Origin: a virus
Taxonomy: Duplodnaviria; Heunggongvirae; Uroviricota; Caudoviricetes
DNA: 7,153 nucleotides
Virus record (IMG/VR): IMGVR_UViG_2657245112_000033
Direction: 5' to 3' (one strand)
Shown: one piece after another, positions 1 through 7,153 of the stretch
Layout: each line of letters begins with the position of its first letter
Numbering within the stretch: the stretch's first letter is position 1
Translations under genes and position numbers: made by a program
The notes under the pieces: model-generated
The model's input: the letters and a program-made list of their open reading frames with translations, nothing else
Told to the model about the DNA's origin: nothing
Database searches by the model: none

Positions 1-162
1 TAGCTATAAATACATCTAAATACCTATATCCCTTCCCTTATGGCTAGATTGCGAGAAGTGCTTAACGCGATTTTCAGCGCCCCCCGATCTGGAAAATCCA
101 GAATCCCCAAATATCAGCAAGGAATTTTCTTGCGTAATCAACATCGTTTTTACCTATTAAAT

Positions 163-470: not shown

Positions 471-504
471 TAAAAGTTTTTTGTTTTTATCGTGTGATGT
501 AGTG

Positions 505-951
505 GATTACACAGGGGAATAGATTAAATGGTGTTCTGTTTATACAGGTTTATTTGTTAGATCAACAATTTGGCATTTCTAAACAGATGTTTGAACGTTG
601 CCAAATGTCTTGACAACACAAGAAAAGGGCTTGCTATGCCACGCATTACACGAAATAAGGCTGTAAAAACAAAATAAATTTTAAAATTTGCACAAACAAG
701 AAAACTCATTAAGAAACAAGCAGAACAATTTTTAGCCAACAATTTCTGATGGTGCTCTGTAAGCCGCATTACACAAGGATTTGCGAAAGTGATGTAAAAG
801 TGAAGAAAGTAAGAATTGAACTTTTAAGCTACTTTTTTCATTGAATTTTTAGTATGGAATTACACAGGAATAAGTTAGGGATATTCTATGATTTACACAG
901 GGAATATAGGGGGGATTATGGCACACACATAGAAAGGCATTACACAGAGTG
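505..951 (+). repeat. Dispersed direct copies of the ATTACACAG(G)RAATA motif (6 copies)
   Basis: Copies at 505-522 (gattacacaggggaatag), 644-660, 767-780, 858-874 (aattacacaggaataag), 891-910 (atttacacagggaatatagg) and 938-951. All share the TTACAC core in the same orientation. Confidence 0.75.
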
Positions 952-966
952 CTATGTGACAAATGG

Positions 967-1072
967 ATGTAACGAGAGGTTACATTCAGCTATCTGAAAT
1001 GCTCTTTGTAAGAAAGTTGGTAGTAACGATATGTTACATAGACTAATTATTGAATGTAACGATATTACACAT
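967..1072. promoter_or_regulatory. Three tandem inverted-repeat operator-like sites (ATGTAAC-N5-GTTACAT)
   Basis: 967-985 atgtaac-gagag-gttacat (perfect 7-bp arms); 1021-1040 tagtaac-gatat-gttacat; 1054-1072 atgtaac-gatat-tacacat; plus a half-site at 1086-1095. The arm sequence GTTACAY is the TTACAC-family core. Confidence 0.55.
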
Positions 1073-1097
1073 CGGAAGATGATTGAATGTAACGGTA

Positions 1098-1138
1098 GCT
1101 CACAGTGAGCTAGGGGTAGGTCATAGTGAACTACCCCC
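1098..1138. repeat. 13-bp perfect palindrome GCTCACAGTGAGC plus about 1.5 units of the 22-bp iteron family
   Basis: gctcacagtgagc at 1098-1110 is its own reverse complement. It is followed by taggggta-ggtcatagtgaactac-ccccc, which matches the unit repeated at 1355-1436; ggggtag and ctacccc form a 7-bp inverted repeat. Confidence 0.7.
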
Positions 1139-1146
1139 ACAGAATT

Positions 1147-1198
1147 CTGTTACCCCTATCAAGTCTGATACCCCTATCAAAACTGATACCCGATAAGA
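1147..1198 (+). repeat. Three tandem 18-bp repeats (CTGWTACCCCTATCAA)
   Basis: ctgttacccctatcaag (1147-1163), ctgatacccctatcaa (1165-1180), ctgatacccgataag (1183-1197, degenerate); period 18 bp. Confidence 0.7.
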
Positions 1199-1208
1199 AT
1201 AAATAACA

Positions 1209-1309
1209 CCTAGGAAATGATTTCCGATCTATTTAGGAAGTAACCTAGGAAGTGGTTTCCTACCTACTTAGGAAATGAGTTCCTACCTACCTAGGAAATG
1301 AGTTCCACC
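1209..1309 (+). repeat. Four to five direct copies of a 15-bp motif TAGGAARTGRKTTCC, each with an internal GGAA-N5-TTCC inverted repeat
   Basis: Copies at 1211-1225, 1246-1260, 1269-1283 and 1292-1306 (the last two identical), plus a degenerate copy at 1234-1245; spacing mostly 23 bp. The architecture resembles plasmid centromere or iteron arrays. Confidence 0.7.
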
Positions 1310-1331
1310 AATACTATAATTAAATAATATA

Positions 1332-1354
1332 AATAATATTCTTTATACTATATA
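1332..1354 (+). repeat. 23-bp perfect direct repeat, copy 1 (aataatattctttatactatata), left of the iteron array
   Basis: Identical to 1482-1504. AT-rich and contains a TATACT -10-like hexamer. Confidence 0.85.
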
Positions 1355-1436
1355 GGTCACTGTGACCTAGGGGGTAGGTCATAGTGAGCTAGGGGGTAGG
1401 TCATAGTGAGCTAGGGGGTAGGTCACTGTGAACTAC
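1355..1436 (+). repeat. 22-bp tandem iterons, about 3.7 copies (GGTCAYWGTGASCTAGGGGGTA)
   Basis: Units at 1355-1376, 1377-1398 and 1399-1420 (the last two identical), plus a truncated unit at 1421-1436. The first unit contains the perfect 13-bp palindrome ggtcactgtgacc. AT-rich tracts lie on both sides. Confidence 0.85.
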
Positions 1437-1481
1437 AATAAGACTATTAATAAAACTATATTAGATTATTAATTAGATCAT

Positions 1482-1504
1482 AATAATATTCTTTATACTA
1501 TATA
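1482..1504 (+). repeat. 23-bp perfect direct repeat, copy 2, right of the iteron array and its AT-rich tract
   Basis: Exact match to 1332-1354; the flanking bases differ on both sides, so the repeat is exactly 23 bp. Confidence 0.85.
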
Positions 1505-1509
1505 TATAT

Positions 1510-1930
1510 GATCTTTTGCCTTCCGGCGTTAGCTTCACTCTCTGGCAAGCAGCCTTACTCCGCTACCTTTCGGGCTTCGTGGCTGGCCCGTTCCGCTCAC
1601 ACCGAAAGCAAAGCGTTACTTTCTTCGTGTAACTATCGTGGCGGTAACGCCCACGAAGAAATACTATTGCGCTGTGCGCAGAAGAGTAATCACCTAACCA
1701 ATCATACTGATTGCTTATGTGTAACTCTCTACCTCTTAATTCCACTTCCTACATTTAATAACTCTCGTTATTCTCTGTAGTTGTGTAATTACTCGAAGAG
1801 AGCGGCTAAAGCTCAATTACACTCTGCTTTCCTCGTGTAATTTCACTAAGCCTCAATACAATTTCACTTCCTACATTCTGTAGTCGTGTAATTGTTTTCG
1901 GTGGAAAAGCCAGAGGCGACACCGAAAGAG
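1510..1930. other. GC-rich island with dense hairpin potential; candidate structured RNA or single-strand DNA initiation element
   Basis: Visibly more GC-rich than its AT-rich flanks. Predicted stem-loops: 1621-1660 (outer ttcttcg/cgaagaa around a GC stem capped by a GUAA tetraloop), 1668-1680 (tgcgc-tgt-gcgca), 1749-1780 (ctaca...tgtag enclosing aataac-tctc-gttatt) and a shorter paralogous module at 1862-1893. The 7-mer ctctggc (1540-1546) is complementary to gccagag (1909-1915), and caccgaaag occurs at both ends (1600-1608, 1920-1928). Inverted TTACAC copies lie at 1626-1633, 1717-1725, 1782-1790, 1834-1843 and 1885-1893. Confidence 0.35.
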
Positions 1931-1962
1931 AATTCTGATCTTATTAATCTTATCTATCTTAG

Positions 1963-2001
1963 TTATCTTACTTACTTATCTTACTTACTTTATCTACTTT
2001 A
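1963..2001 (+). repeat. 13-bp tandem repeat (TTATCTTACTTAC, about 3 copies) inside a G-depleted AT-rich tract
   Basis: ttatcttacttac at 1963-1975 and 1976-1988, with a degenerate third copy at 1989-2001. The plus strand from about 1939 to 2020 contains almost no G. This could be a DNA unwinding element. Confidence 0.65.
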
Positions 2002-2515
2002 TTATTAATAATATCTTTATAAGCTCTGTGTAGCTCTCTGACGCAAGAAACAGCATTCAGGAAGGGAATCACCTTAGAAAAGTGTTCTTTGCGTCATAAT
2101 GTGTTTTATGAAGGATTCAGAGGTGTTTCATAACAGAGATGTATAGAGGATACTTTAGGTAATTAAAAATAAGGGGTCTAAATGCTTCTCTAACAACATT
2201 AAGCAGGGTAGGGAATGGAAACGCATTGCCTACATATAATAAACTCACTACAGGGCTTTACAGAGCGTTTTATAAAGTGACTCTCTGTTTTATATCTATC
2301 ATCATCTAACAAATACAAAATAAGCCACTTAAATAAGCCTCTGGCGAGCTAAACAGCCATTAGATAAGGGAATGTATTGCTTTTATCAAAATCTCGTTAG
2401 AACGCGTTTTAGAGCGTTTTAGACAATAAGGAAGAATAGCACTACATAGGAGAGCACGAATTGCTAAGAAAAAATGTAAGTGCATGAAAAAGATCAGATT
2501 TTTTATGAAAAGGTA

Positions 2516-2544
2516 TTGACAAATGTTTCTTTATATGTAATAAT
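2516..2544 (+). promoter_or_regulatory. Sigma70-like promoter with extended -10 (TTGACA-17 bp-TGt-AATAAT), probable promoter of the 2656-4950 operon
   Basis: TTGACA at 2516-2521, TG at 2536-2537, AATAAT at 2539-2544. The leader downstream contains a short hairpin (aagcc-gtca-ggctt, 2603-2616) and a T-run at 2625-2635 before the first ribosome-binding site. Confidence 0.55.
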
Positions 2545-2655
2545 AGGTATTAGAGGGACAGAAAAACATTCTTCTCTAAATAATCAAAATCAATGCACTT
2601 TGAAGCCGTCAGGCTTGCAAGGTGTTTTTTCTTTTAACTGAATAAGGAGTTTTTT

Positions 2656-2844
2656 ATGAAATGGTTTACACCTGAGCACGTCGTCCAGGCATTTAAAAAA
2701 GGTGAGCTTACACGCCACCAAGTAGTAATGAATCGTAATATGGCAAGGAGTCGAGGTTATCCAGAGCGAGCAGCTTGCTTCAATGAAGCACTCAAGATTA
2801 TTGATGAACTAAGAAAAAATGAAAAAGAATCTGAAACAGAGTAA
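2656..2844 (+). CDS. Hypothetical small protein (62 aa)
   Basis: ATG at 2656 preceded by AAGGAG (2644-2649); first gene after the predicted promoter; no family recognised. Confidence 0.6.
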   Translation: MKWFTPEHVVQAFKKGELTRHQVVMNRNMARSRGYPERAACFNEALKIIDELRKNEKESETE

Positions 2845-2863
2845 AGAAGAGAAGGAGAAAACT

Positions 2864-3034
2864 ATGAGCGAAACTACAGAAAAGAAAAGACAACCACGCA
2901 CTTGCTTTCATATTCCTGATGAAGTATTTCAGGTGTTATTTAAAGAAGCCAGAAGTAGACGGATCACTGTCACAGATTACATTCTTGATATGTTGAAAAG
3001 AGAGGCTGAAACACTCTCAAATAAAAGCAAGTGA
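2864..3034 (+). CDS. Ribbon-helix-helix-like (CopG/Arc-type) small DNA-binding protein, about 56 aa
   Basis: The track ORF is 2819-3034, but the ATG at 2864 has an AAGGAG site (2852-2857) and lies after the upstream stop (2842-2844), while 2819 has none. The segment RTCFHIPDEVFQVLFKEARSRRITVTDYILDMLKRE fits a strand-helix-helix pattern. Confidence 0.5.
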   Translation: MSETTEKKRQPRTCFHIPDEVFQVLFKEARSRRITVTDYILDMLKREAETLSNKSK

Positions 3035-3087
3035 TTTTTATCACCATAGTAGCGCCATAGAGCGTGATTACATCAAGGAGATTTTTA

Positions 3088-3780
3088 ATGATTAACCAAC
3101 TAACTTTTACAAAACACTATGACACGTTTGATAATGTATCAAAGATTTATTCTGATAAATTCCCTCAAGGAAAAGATTTAGATCTATTACATATTGTGCT
3201 TTATTTTCGATTCCTTAGTTATCAGGAAAACAACCTTAATTGTTATGAAAGTCACGAAACATTAGCTAAGATTTTTAAGTCTTCAGCGTCAACAATTAAA
3301 CGTAAGATAAACGATCTTAAAGAGATGGGATTATTAGAAACATCCCCACATCCTGATCCGTATATTTCATCTTTGATTTACAATGCTCTCCCTCTCACAG
3401 ATGCACATATTACTCCCCCAGGAGAATCATCACTCTCTGATCTTTCTGAGGCAGAAGAAGCACAGGAACAACCTAAAGGCCATAAACAGCCTTCTTTTGA
3501 TGTTCTTGATGATGATTGGGATACGCCTTTACCGTGGGAGACGGAAGAAACACCTGTTTCATCAAGTGAAAAGGTAGCTAATGATAATGAGGAGGATGTG
3601 TTAAAGAATTTTGCCTCTCTTATTATCAAGCAGAAGAATACTAGAACAGGAGGAGCATCATTTATAGAATTTGCAACATCGTTAGCCTATAAGCACAGGT
3701 TAAAGCTACCAAATGGTATTGAGGCATATTTTGCTAAGAAACATCCCAAAGTATACGAAGACTTTGATATTCCATTTTAA
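3088..3780 (+). CDS. Winged-HTH-like DNA-binding protein with acidic C-terminal region ending in an SSB-tail-like DFDIPF; possible replication initiator or organiser
   Basis: The track ORF starts at GTG 3064; the in-frame ATG at 3088 has AAGGAG at 3075-3080 with a 7-nt spacer. The N-terminal part (LHIVLYFRFLSYQENNLNCYESHETLAKIFKSSASTIKRKINDLKEMGLLE) fits a winged-HTH pattern. The C-terminal half is acidic (DDDWDTPLPWETEE) and the last residues are EDFDIPF. Confidence 0.7.
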   Translation: MINQLTFTKHYDTFDNVSKIYSDKFPQGKDLDLLHIVLYFRFLSYQENNLNCYESHETLAKIFKSSASTIKRKINDLKEMGLLETSPHPDPYISSLIYNALPLTDAHITPPGESSLSDLSEAEEAQEQPKGHKQPSFDVLDDDWDTPLPWETEETPVSSSEKVANDNEEDVLKNFASLIIKQKNTRTGGASFIEFATSLAYKHRLKLPNGIEAYFAKKHPKVYEDFDIPF

Positions 3781-5889: not shown

Positions 5890-6918
5890 ATGATTCTAGG
5901 CAATGATTACGTTGATTTGATCCCTCTGTTCCAGACACACAGCACGCGTAACTTCCTGCTCTCTACTCTTGATTTTACGGATTCTGTAGGGGTTACATCT
6001 CATAAAGTAGCTGTTTCCCAGCTTGTCGAAAGCAACGAATCTCTCTTTAACAAAGAGACAAGCCGTTTTAGTTCTGAACACAATGTTACTAAGCGAGAAC
6101 AAGGTAAAGAATGGCTGATCGAGATCCCTTACTTCCTGCGTGAAGATGTGATCCGTCCTTCTGATGTTCAAGGCAAACGTAAACCTGGCACTGATTTCCA
6201 GGAAACACTCACTGATATTTATGCGGAATATATCGCTAAACACCACGTAGCGTATCAGCGTACAAAAGAGAGCGTATTGGCTGCTTCTTTGTTCTCGGGC
6301 AAAACTTATACACCGAAAACTGATGATGTTCTTATCGAATGGGGCAAGCTGTTTAACGTATCAGCTATGAAAGCCACTGTGAACGCTTCCAGCACTGACA
6401 CCACGAAGATTTTTAAAGAATTTGATCAGATTGCTACTGACATTATCGAGAAAGCACAAAGCCAGGCGTCTGCTGTAGAGCGTATTGTTGTTTTCTGTAA
6501 ACCTGAAGCCTTCTCCGCAATTCGATTCTCTGCTGGTATGGCAAACGCATTCCAGTATGTAAGCCCACTGGAAGAGGGGAACGTTGTGTATCAGCGTCGT
6601 GACCTGCTGCCAGGGGTGACAGCGTTCACTATCCCAGGAACTAACATTGATGTTGTTAAACTGGTAGATCCGCTACACCTTGCACATATGACTTCTGATG
6701 CGGTTGCGATTCCGAAGTTTGCTAAAGGCTCTAATGTATATCAGAACATCTACGGGGCTGCTTCCAGCACTTTTGAACTGATCAATGCCGCTCCTGCTGA
6801 GGTGTATAGCTATAGCTATGAATCTTCTCGTGGTGATGCTGTTAACGTTGTTACAGAGAATAGCCAGATGGTTGTAAACCACGGTGTAGGCTTCTCCGTT
6901 CAAATCACTGTTAAATAA
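5890..6918 (+). CDS. Major capsid protein, lambda gpE family (342 aa)
   Basis: AAGGAA ribosome-binding site before ATG 5890. Length matches gpE (341 aa). Several segments resemble my recollection of lambda gpE: SVLAASLFSGKTYTPKTD vs AVSAVLKGKYTMTGE, ASAVERIVVFCKPEAFSAIRFS vs ASGVVNIIVFDPKGWALFRSF, DLLPGVTAFTIPG vs NFLPDNTMVLG, and C-terminal GFSVQITVK vs EFVSVQLA. Recalled, not aligned. Confidence 0.85.
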   Translation: MILGNDYVDLIPLFQTHSTRNFLLSTLDFTDSVGVTSHKVAVSQLVESNESLFNKETSRFSSEHNVTKREQGKEWLIEIPYFLREDVIRPSDVQGKRKPGTDFQETLTDIYAEYIAKHHVAYQRTKESVLAASLFSGKTYTPKTDDVLIEWGKLFNVSAMKATVNASSTDTTKIFKEFDQIATDIIEKAQSQASAVERIVVFCKPEAFSAIRFSAGMANAFQYVSPLEEGNVVYQRRDLLPGVTAFTIPGTNIDVVKLVDPLHLAHMTSDAVAIPKFAKGSNVYQNIYGAASSTFELINAAPAEVYSYSYESSRGDAVNVVTENSQMVVNHGVGFSVQITVK

Positions 6919-6958
6919 TATTTAACGTGTAATAGAGGCGTGGCGCTGAGAGATCCCC

Positions 6959-7153
6959 TCATAATTTCCCCAAAGCGTAACCATGTGTGAATAAATTTTG
7001 AGCTAGTAGGGTTGCAGCCACGAGTAAGTCTTCCCTTGTTATTGTGTAGCCAGAATGCCGCAAAACTTCCATGCCTAAGCGAACTGTTGAGAGTACGTTT
7101 CGATTTCTGACTGTGTTAGCCTGGAAGTGCTTGTCCCAACCTTGTTTCTGAGC
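6959..7153 (-). CDS. Possible 3' end of a convergent gene running off the window (C-terminal 64 codons, unknown function)
   Basis: The minus-strand frame entering at 7153 is open for 64 codons (...GMEVLRHSGYTITREDLLVAATLLAQNLFTHGYALGKL) and stops at 6959-6961. It is absent from the track because no Met start lies in the window. The composition is protein-like, but a chance open frame is not excluded. Confidence 0.3.
   Translation of the reverse strand, partial: AQKQGWDKHFQANTVRNRNVLSTVRLGMEVLRHSGYTITREDLLVAATLLAQNLFTHGYALGKL

Follow-up and report, generated by a model that had tools for sequence, protein, structure and literature searches.

The locus

The DNA analysed here, a stretch of 7153 bases from the IMG/VR virus record IMGVR_UViG_2657245112_000033 (below, the window), is chromosomal DNA of Escherichia coli O111:H11 and O26-type strains (NZ_CP077567 is 100% identical), and at least 80% of it is carried by 245 complete genomes. 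It belongs to an island of ~12 kb located at tRNA-Thr and adjoining proA. A gene-free part of ~3.6 kb packed with repeat arrays is followed by a sigma-70 promoter, small genes, a gene for a winged-helix initiator (Rep) and one for a lambda-E-type major capsid protein; beyond the window end come genes for a tape-measure-like protein (PHROG 16051, E = 1e-54), a Dit-like distal tail protein and a tyrosine integrase. Our subject is a segment of the gene-free part, ~420 bases long in the window (1510-1930) and 320-500 bases in relatives, which starts directly right of an AT-rich stretch and which we call the element. A first-pass annotation, made from the letters alone, had described it as a GC-rich island of repeated hairpin modules that might be a structured RNA or a single-strand initiation (ssi) signal. 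Here we show that the element is real, codes for no protein, has been selected to fold as a single strand, and is tied to a replication origin.

Conservation and covariation of the element

Among 5426 complete E. coli genomes, 438 have the segment, in each case in the chromosome and with 80-100% identity. Exact-word scans with its conserved core also retrieved it from the IMG/VR contigs L005-L014 (loci are cited here by L numbers), from about two dozen metagenome contigs, and from Enterobacter nematophilus, Citrobacter sp. NCU1 and Escherichia sp. E1V33, and a more divergent type is found in E. coli B strains, BL21(DE3) among them, and in another 46 genomes. The homologue set comprises 34 distinct sequences, many of which are just 43-53% identical overall to the window. 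Whole hairpins have been swapped between lineages for others that have a new sequence and the same shape. Because whole modules are replaced in this way, RNAalifold recovered few helices on the global MAFFT alignment, and a sub-region and the core were therefore scored separately.

The sub-region, equivalent to window positions 1667-1859, was scored for 18 distinct sequences and 56 pairs. It should be noted that the voted structure comes from folds of these same sequences, which favours structure, and that the MAFFT alignment is not structure-aware, which works against it. The two partners could pair in 83.7% of the cells, versus 32-40% when the partners were slid by 1-3 columns, and 21 of the 56 pairs had changed on both sides, versus 3-7 in the slid controls. 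The covariation score was 0.245 (0.05-0.10 in the slid controls), which none of 500 shuffles attained. In the core, 93.7% of the cells were paired, versus 9-38% with slid partners, and the stem CAGCC/GGCTG is replaced by TGACC/GGTCA in the BL21(DE3) type (L050, L052 and L053), which amounts to three compensatory pairs; the remaining variation in the core is confined to predicted loops or bulges. Covariation among homologues, which the first-pass annotation had named as a check on its structural proposal, is thus evident in both parts.

A protein-coding gene was considered and rejected, since frames are broken by single-base insertions or deletions in close relatives (CCTTT-GGGC; CG-TGG versus CGTTGG; GGCC-CG versus GGCCTCG). 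The open frames differ between lineages (L016 and L018), and the one at 1508-1780, from which no protein had been expected, is not conserved. A retron had likewise been thought improbable, and neither the window nor the island contains a reverse transcriptase. One might still suppose that the segment has no function of its own and represents a decaying gene, chance palindromes, or inverted repeats bound by a protein as duplex DNA: open reading frames of 90 (plus strand) and 60 (minus strand) amino acids overlap it, and the neighbouring iterons, being palindromic, also give strong fold z-scores. We give this supposition hardly any weight, in view of the frame-breaking changes in close relatives, of a structure kept at 43-53% identity with 21 covarying pairs, and of the strand asymmetry described below, which cannot stem from the symmetry of a duplex.

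The folded strand

Window positions 1500-1940 were folded as RNA and compared with 100 shuffles, for each strand. The expectation that the segment would fold better than shuffled controls held for both strands, and in neither case was any of the 100 shuffles as good: the plus strand reached -127 kcal/mol, compared with -97.2 +/- 5.9 for its shuffles (z = -5.0), and the minus strand -156.5 kcal/mol, compared with -110.8 +/- 5.1 (z = -9.0). The minus strand was also the stronger one in all five divergent homologues folded (z for minus/plus: -5.1/-2.4, -3.8/-2.7, -6.3/-2.5, -5.7/-3.2 and -3.1/-2.8). Among the cells of the 40 pairs common to the folds of both strands, 589 are Watson-Crick, 30 are G.U when read on the minus strand, and a single one is A.C. 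This asymmetry is clear only on the pairs common to both strands, G.U counts in minimum-energy folds of the whole element being uninformative. A single-base variant of the core stem in L051 is G.U on the minus strand as well. Unpaired minus-strand positions in nine lineages consist of 34-42% A, 26-29% G, 21-28% U and 8-14% C, and a loop make-up that is rich in A and G and poor in C is usual in structured RNAs. Based on the z-scores, the 30:1 G.U asymmetry and the make-up of the unpaired bases, we conclude that the minus strand, which lies opposite to the genes, is the one that folds. As G.T pairs are tolerated in DNA hairpins too, the asymmetry is compatible with RNA and single-stranded DNA (ssDNA) alike. 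Both the identity of the folded strand and the satellite-like island at tRNA-Thr had escaped the first-pass annotation.

These results also bear on the proposal that the functional molecule is a structured leader or regulatory RNA of the plus strand that runs in the direction of the genes as far as the hairpin-plus-TTTT block ahead of the early promoter. We regard such an RNA as improbable: the plus strand has 30 A.C and one G.U, even with the structure taken from plus-strand folds, its z-scores in the homologues are weak (-2.4 to -3.2), its loops are G-poor and pyrimidine-rich, and no plus-strand promoter was found in the AT-rich stretch. What speaks for it is that the plus strand folds better than its shuffles (z = -5.0), that it has GNRA loops (GTAA, GAGA and GTGA) in one arm of the branched hairpin, and that a conserved T-run follows the hairpins downstream of the element.

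Anatomy of the element

The features listed in the first-pass annotation, i.e. a GTAA-capped GC stem inside the hairpin at 1621-1660, the two modules and a 7-bp complementarity, are all present (Table 1). Its description as a GC-rich island applies to only the first ~170 bases of the flagged segment: the GC fraction is 0.505 over 1501-1700, compared with 0.30-0.40 in the flanks, whereas that of 1700-1930 is an ordinary 0.36-0.40. A sliding fold scan delimited a structured stretch at ~1560-1960 and an extra hairpin near 2040-2100. Thus, the limits 1510-1930 enclose a real element, but the structured region goes on past 1930 to the hairpin at 2039-2097, which is homologous to a conserved hairpin-plus-TTTT block found downstream of the element in other lineages.

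Ahead of the core, the short hairpin region has counterparts in other lineages that read GGCG-N5/6-CGCC, plus GCAAA-GATCW-TTTGC. The core itself, with an apical loop C-GAAA-G on the minus strand, is nearly invariant among lineages that are otherwise 43-53% identical. The branched hairpin encloses GGCG-GTAA-CGCC (1640-1651) in the window and forms a Y-shaped three-way junction in other lineages; its stem occurs as GTGCA/TGCAC or GTGCC/GGCAC, and its arms as ACCG/CGGT versus TGAC/GTCA, TCG/CGA or CTGAC/GTCAG. A U.G pair of the minus strand is conserved in the hairpin at 1691-1721 (12 of 18 sequences), and corresponds to a C.A mismatch on the plus strand. The outer part of the long stem that follows reads CTCTACCT/AGGTAGAG or GCTGACT/AGTCAG in other lineages, and the inner stem of the hairpin at 1804-1852 reads ACTGG/CCAGT or ACCGT/ACGGT elsewhere.

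Module 1 (1740-1792) consists of CCTACAT...TGTAG with the inner hairpin AATAAC-TCTC-GTTATT. As had been noticed at the outset, it shares its flanks with a second module (1862-1893), and the inner hairpin is found in the first. In L002, L003, L016 and L018 module 2 has the inner hairpin, so that in L002 both modules carry it, and in L004, L022 and L030 module 2 is replaced by a different long hairpin. The copy in L017 (Escherichia sp. E1V33) has undergone recombination between the modules, which are joined by a natural deletion of ~120 bases. Because of this deletion, either the part equivalent to window ~1790-1880 would be dispensable or the L017 copy would be defective.

The 7-bp complementarity had been proposed to close the whole domain. 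It is present and conserved, the motif GCCAGRG being kept in 34 of the 34 distinct homologues, its variable pair reads U.G or U.A on the minus strand, and an extra T in the window pairs the A that is bulged in other lineages. However, it barely covaries, and it competes with the local GGC/GCC closure of the core hairpin. In the window, CTTATCT and CTTACTT units form an AT-rich run directly right of the element (1935-2030). The copy number of the units differs between strains by insertions or deletions of whole units; the run is absent from higher-GC lineages.

Table 1. Coordinates of the element, its surroundings and related features. Positions refer to the window unless a locus is given.
Feature	Position	Strand	Details
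TTACACAG-type repeats	500-950		6 copies
ATGTAACG-type repeats	960-1095		
GGTCAYWGTGA repeats	1100-1140 and 1355-1436		
CTGATACCCCTATCA repeats	1140-1195		
CCTAGGAAATGAKTTCC repeats	1210-1310		5 copies
Origin-proximal iteron array	1355-1436		~4 copies of GGTAGGTCAYWGTGARCTAGGG, partly palindromic; read in the sequence
AT-rich stretch with GATC sites	1437-1510		presumed DNA-unwinding element
Short hairpin region between GATC site and core	1511-1543	minus	GCC-TTCC-GGC in the window; from alignments
Core	1544-1599	minus	hairpin (plus-strand letters) GGC-AAG-CAGCC...GGCTG-GCC (1544-1588), then CGTTCCGCTCA
Branched hairpin	1621-1660	minus	9-bp outer stem: TTCTTCGTG (1621-1629) pairs with CACGAAGAA (1652-1660)
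Invariant hairpin	1669-1679	minus	GCGC-TGT-GCGC; in 19 of 20 representatives
Hairpin	1691-1721	minus	CAC-C-TAA-C-CAATCA / TGATTG-C-TTA-T-GTG; helix 6, 5 pairs changed on both sides
Long stem around paralogous module 1	1725-1802	minus	CTCTCT.../...AGAGAG; helices 3-5, 11 pairs changed on both sides
Hairpin	1804-1852	minus	GGCT...AGCC, inner stem AATTACAC/GTGTAATT; helices 1-2 of the covariation count
Paralogous module 2	1858-1895	minus	ACAATT-CAC-CTACA...TGTAG-GTG-AATTGT
Long-range closure	1909-1915	minus	GCCAGAG, complement of CTCTGGC at 1540-1546
Hairpin with 14-bp stem	2039-2097		TGACGCAAGAAACA / TGTTCTTTGCGTCA, then GTGTTTTATG; local z = -3.0 (plus), -3.7 (minus)
Early sigma-70 promoter	2516-2544	plus	TTGACA-17-AATAAT with TG; directed away from the element
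Rep initiator	3088-3780	plus	winged-helix helix-turn-helix (HTH) protein of 230 amino acids; Pfam HTH_36 (E = 2.8e-5), DUF6945
IS10/ISVsa5 end	6956-7153		directly after the capsid gene, in O111:H11 strains
thiM thiamine pyrophosphate (TPP) riboswitch insertion sites	L004 1-71 and 10864-10961; L016 4393-4489; L050 11883-11979		
Small HTH gene region	L003 7728-7770; L004 7640-7760; L050 8643-8825		

The element adjoins an iteron-type origin

In every locus examined the features follow each other in a fixed order: about four iterons, the AT-rich stretch with GATC, the element with its core first, hairpins and a T-run, promoters, and genes. The AT-rich stretch is 40-100 bases long across loci, and every lineage has, at a distance of 80 to 230 bases before the core anchor, some 40-base segment that reaches 70-97% A+T; most lineages also have a GATC 34 bases ahead of this anchor. 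The element is followed by ~150-200 bases with conserved hairpins and a T-run, and then by one to three strong plus-strand promoters, the equivalent of the early promoter of the window being present in nearly all lineages. Downstream come a 62-amino-acid gene, an Arc-like gene and rep. The same order holds in the minimal islands of L004, L016 and BL21(DE3). Rep, whose gene lies 1.2 kb downstream of the element, matches PHROG 270, 428 and 391, which are annotated as replication initiation or O-like (E down to 2.7e-9). The surroundings thus contain what characterises an iteron-type theta origin, i.e. at least three direct repeats, an AT-rich stretch, and the gene of a cognate initiator nearby. 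Between the early promoter and the first open reading frame (2656) the window has a hairpin, AAGCC-GTC-AGGCTT, with a T-run (2596-2632), which has equivalents in other lineages and may be an attenuator.

Iteron type and Rep allele change together between islands. The same iteron array as in the window adjoins the AT-rich stretch in L002, L007, L009-L013 and L049, and the Rep proteins of these loci share at least 92% identity with that of the window, while islands with other proximal iterons have a Rep that is only 41-58% identical (53% for the ACAGAATTCTGT type, 58% for the CCTAGGAAATGA type, 41% for the GTAACG type and 54% for the GATACCCCTATCA type). The elements of L005, L006, L008 and L014 are nevertheless 96-97% identical to that of the window despite other iterons and a Rep of 41-58% identity. 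Judged from these comparisons, the element is independent of Rep specificity, and, since it is kept while Rep and iterons are swapped, it would serve something common to all islands, which on this reasoning must be host factors, helper factors or the fold of the element itself.

A core that is kept regardless of Rep type is also what a site dictated by a helper would look like. The element might therefore be a packaging site (pac or cos) or another protein-recognition DNA site for the terminase of a helper, with the core as recognition sequence, and the islands, which have no terminase gene, would need packaging if they are satellites. We consider this unlikely. No counterpart of the core or of the element turned up in 50,697 phage records, a set in which G4-like microviruses should be present; at E <= 10 the core gave only one match, to T7 gene 10B. 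In addition, the compensatory changes and the 30:1 G.U asymmetry point to selection on pairing within one strand and not to a duplex site for a protein. The T7 match links the core (window 1546-1587, minus strand) to the 3' end of gene 10B over 34 of 42 bases, including AGCCCGAAAGG...GGCTGCT; with E = 7 it was treated as a chance resemblance.

Between positions 480 and 1440 the window has at least five families of repeats (iterons) in series, and several of these are the origin-proximal iterons of L006, L014, L017, L018 and BL21, i.e. of islands with other Rep alleles. For this reason the island of the window may hold spare sites or decoys that bind the initiators of rival islands.

Possible role of the element

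We favour the view, with a probability of about 0.5, that the element is a generic, Rep-independent and strand-specific origin accessory of a family of integrated satellite-like replicons, because it has a fixed position and orientation at the unwinding stretch, is independent of Rep specificity, and has a strand-specific fold. Rep would bind the iterons and open the AT-rich stretch, and the folded minus strand would then provide the start of DNA synthesis by means of factors common to all hosts or helpers. This could take place in two ways. First, a minus-strand RNA running leftward into the AT-rich stretch might act as primer, pre-primer or R-loop former, like RNA II of ColE1. Second, the minus strand might act as ssDNA: with a fork that moves rightward, in the direction of the genes, it would be the template of the leading strand, the core would be exposed first, and the unwound hairpin signal would be read by the host primase or primosome, as is the G-site of R1. 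The RNA-like loop composition, the tolerated G.U pairs, the large covarying fold and the lack of a terminator before the AT-rich stretch favour the RNA, which we place slightly ahead, while the ssDNA variant has the advantage of not requiring a promoter and the disadvantages that known ssi sites are far smaller and show no sequence similarity to the element. It is the priming role and the choice between RNA and ssDNA that we infer in this view. The replication-priming role that was among the original suggestions is plausible for an element that abuts an iteron/AT-rich origin with a cognate Rep 1.2 kb downstream, and the element may act in either form, RNA or ssDNA. A single-strand origin had also been suggested; one of the rolling-circle type is unlikely, as the initiator is HTH_36/O-like and no HUH domain was found.

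Several observations weigh against the origin-accessory view. Adjacency to an origin is in itself no proof of a role in replication, and within 330 bases upstream of the core neither a DnaA box (TTATCCACA, at most one mismatch) nor an integration host factor consensus is conserved, the sole DnaA box with one mismatch being that of L016. No sigma-70 promoter was found on the minus strand within ~600 bases right of the element in the window, and an extended -10-like motif (TGnTAnnnT) at a fixed minus-strand position, back to back with the early promoter, is present in only 6 of 16 lineages; these two points tell specifically against the RNA variant. GNRA-type loops occur on both strands, e.g. 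GTAA, GAGA and GTGA on the plus strand in the branched hairpin. Known ssi sites measure 40-140 bases, and a covarying structure of 420 bases exceeds what simple priming needs. Finally, blastn with the element of L018 gave no match at E <= 0.01 in the 50,697 phage records and none in 72,556 plasmid records, and the two collections revealed no resemblance to the priming signals of G4, R1, F, R6K or ColE1.

It should be noted that in a whole-window megablast two plasmid matches, H41 and H42, take in most of the window's sequence outside IS10; they align in 2-4 pieces to parts of window 728-3456, for which the overlap with 1510-1930 was not examined; the other plasmid matches among the top 20 listed fall within IS10. 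Rfam 15, searched at a permissive E-value for a described family, as the first-pass annotation had proposed, gave no match overlapping the element at E <= 1 for the window or at E <= 5 for L003, L004, L016 and L018, and a scan for tRNA and tmRNA gave nothing.

The same data could reflect a large structured non-coding RNA of the minus strand that acts in trans and is unrelated to the firing of the origin, serving, e.g., for regulation of or interference with a helper phage, sequestration of a host or phage protein or control of island induction. In that case the element would adjoin the origin just because the island has no other large non-coding region. Structured RNAs typically show covariation, G.U asymmetry and loops rich in A and G, a length of 320-500 bases with modular hairpins recalls large prophage-associated RNAs, the near-invariant core suggests a conserved binding partner, and some lineages have the extended -10-like element on the minus strand. 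However, scans for sigma-70 promoters and terminators on both strands gave no convincing signals flanking the element, so that the minus strand is without a general promoter or terminator and the RNA would enter the AT-rich stretch and the iterons; moreover, a free-standing RNA gene would not need the strictly fixed position and orientation relative to the AT-rich stretch that is seen in every lineage. We therefore see this as a minor possibility, if one to be reckoned with.

Returning to the origin-accessory view, its most far-reaching version, which we put forward tentatively, is that the element is an undescribed structured minus-strand RNA of 450-700 bases that forms the universal and exchangeable "engine" of a hybrid origin and primes, or recruits the replisome of the host or helper. 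The initiator and the swappable iterons would choose when and where to open, and the RNA would enter the opened AT-rich stretch. If so, the logics of Rep-iteron and ColE1-like origins would be combined in hundreds of E. coli genomes, including BL21(DE3).

Folded single-strand signals and primer RNAs at origins are already known as a kind. The element, which is widespread and outside the described families, greatly exceeds known ssi sites in size and occurs together with a Rep-iteron origin. If the origin-accessory view is right, a common family of E. coli islands has a modular origin in which iterons and Rep are exchanged while the folded element performs the generic start, which would explain how islands that encode neither a primase nor a helicase loader amplify, would add a new family of large structured nucleic acids in enterobacteria, and would give a handle on the biology of satellites and helpers. 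Its presence in BL21(DE3), where it lies at ~2,085,690-2,086,300 of NC_012892.2, and in other B strains makes the element accessible in a standard laboratory host.

Comparison with known systems

The ColE1 origin, of ~600 bp, encodes a primer RNA whose extension exposes an ssi or primosome assembly site (PMC3167613). Like the RNA II region of ColE1/pMB1, which gives a structured transcript of ~550 bases, the element is a structured non-coding region of similar size (~500-600 bases) whose hypothetical transcript would run toward the start of DNA synthesis, and it is proposed to depend on host factors only, without a determinant specific to it (PMC3167613). Unlike ColE1, in which replication is independent of an initiator, the islands have a rep gene, iterons and an AT-rich unwinding stretch. 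Neither a clear sigma-70 promoter of the RNA II type nor an antisense RNA I was found at the element, which, with the copy of L018 as query, has no sequence similarity to plasmids.

The G-site of R1 is a G4-type, primase-dependent ssi downstream of oriR, and related ssi are present in F, R6K and R100. Here the likeness is in the layout, in which a hairpin signal specific to one strand, the leading-strand template, comes after an origin bound by an initiator, and in the proposed exposure of this signal by unwinding for the host primase without the need for a promoter. However, G4-type sites consist of three hairpins in ~100-140 bases, compared with at least eight helices in 320-500 bases for the element, which has no sequence similarity to G4-like phages or plasmids.

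Other orientation-specific ssDNA folds, of 150-300 bases, are the single-strand origins (sso) ssoA and ssoU of rolling-circle plasmids and the minus-strand origin of filamentous phages, which are read by host RNA polymerase or primase. These share with the element a short conserved core and flanking stems kept by compensatory change, but the sso need an HUH Rep and a double-strand origin, whereas the islands have a winged-helix, O-like initiator and iterons, and theta-type replication is therefore indicated.

In RSF1010, iterons, an AT-rich region and hairpin priming signals are combined in one compact oriV (PMC8567376), and the layout is in this respect similar. The ssiA and ssiB sites of RSF1010 are 40-base inverted repeats on opposite strands that are read by the plasmid's own RepB' primase, whereas the element is specific to one strand. 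An ssi of this type was rejected, as no primase domain was found in the island proteins scanned (Pfam and PHROGs). Extrachromosomal prophages of mycobacteriophages have, next to their maintenance functions, a non-coding RNA region required for replication (PMC7157519), and are thus another case of a phage-related replicon with such a region; they differ in having no Rep protein, a host of a different phylum, and no known sequence relation to the element. The Rfam families ROOL and GOLLD resemble the element in having several hundred bases, many hairpins, phage-related carriers and no assigned function. They are not tied to an origin, and the element matches no Rfam model.

The host islands

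Scans with Pfam and PHROGs found no terminase, portal, primase or helicase genes among the island proteins, and because of their absence the island looks like a phage satellite. Capsid and tail genes without terminase or portal are an unusual gene set for a satellite, for which no describing paper was found; the literature on the island family, on satellites of phi92/phAPEC8-like phages and on transcripts at the BL21 locus yielded nothing relevant. The part of L001 at 20890-26156 corresponds to window 5890-6918 and what follows downstream, with the capsid, tape-measure-like, Dit-like and integrase genes. Genomes other than those of O111:H11 strains align only as far as window position 6945.

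Members of the island family are found at tRNA-Thr, at tRNA-Gly and inside the thiM riboswitch, and some have capsid and tail genes or defence cargo. The minimal islands of L004, L016 and BL21(DE3), which all lie within the thiM TPP riboswitch, contain hardly anything besides an integrase, cargo (e.g. a TIR protein) and the replicon module. That of L004 has a second, partial copy of the aptamer at its flank, and that of BL21(DE3) and other B strains is a remnant truncated by IS1.

A search for a helper by tblastn of Rep against phages found one partial homologue, inny_184 of phage inny (Justusliebigvirus; L054 2914-4017), a protein of 367 amino acids whose N-terminal part is 34% identical to the N-terminal half of Rep. 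The phi92/phAPEC8-like phages (Stephanstirmvirinae) have matches of 40-50 bases, at 91-100% identity, to window positions 43-88, 3047-3095 and 3384-3426. These short matches and inny_184 may be a trace of exchange between the islands and a group of helper phages. Lastly, higher-GC lineages have a small HTH gene, with the ending ...RYAVSRATIYRWVK, that stops at the first iteron and is missing from the island of the window.

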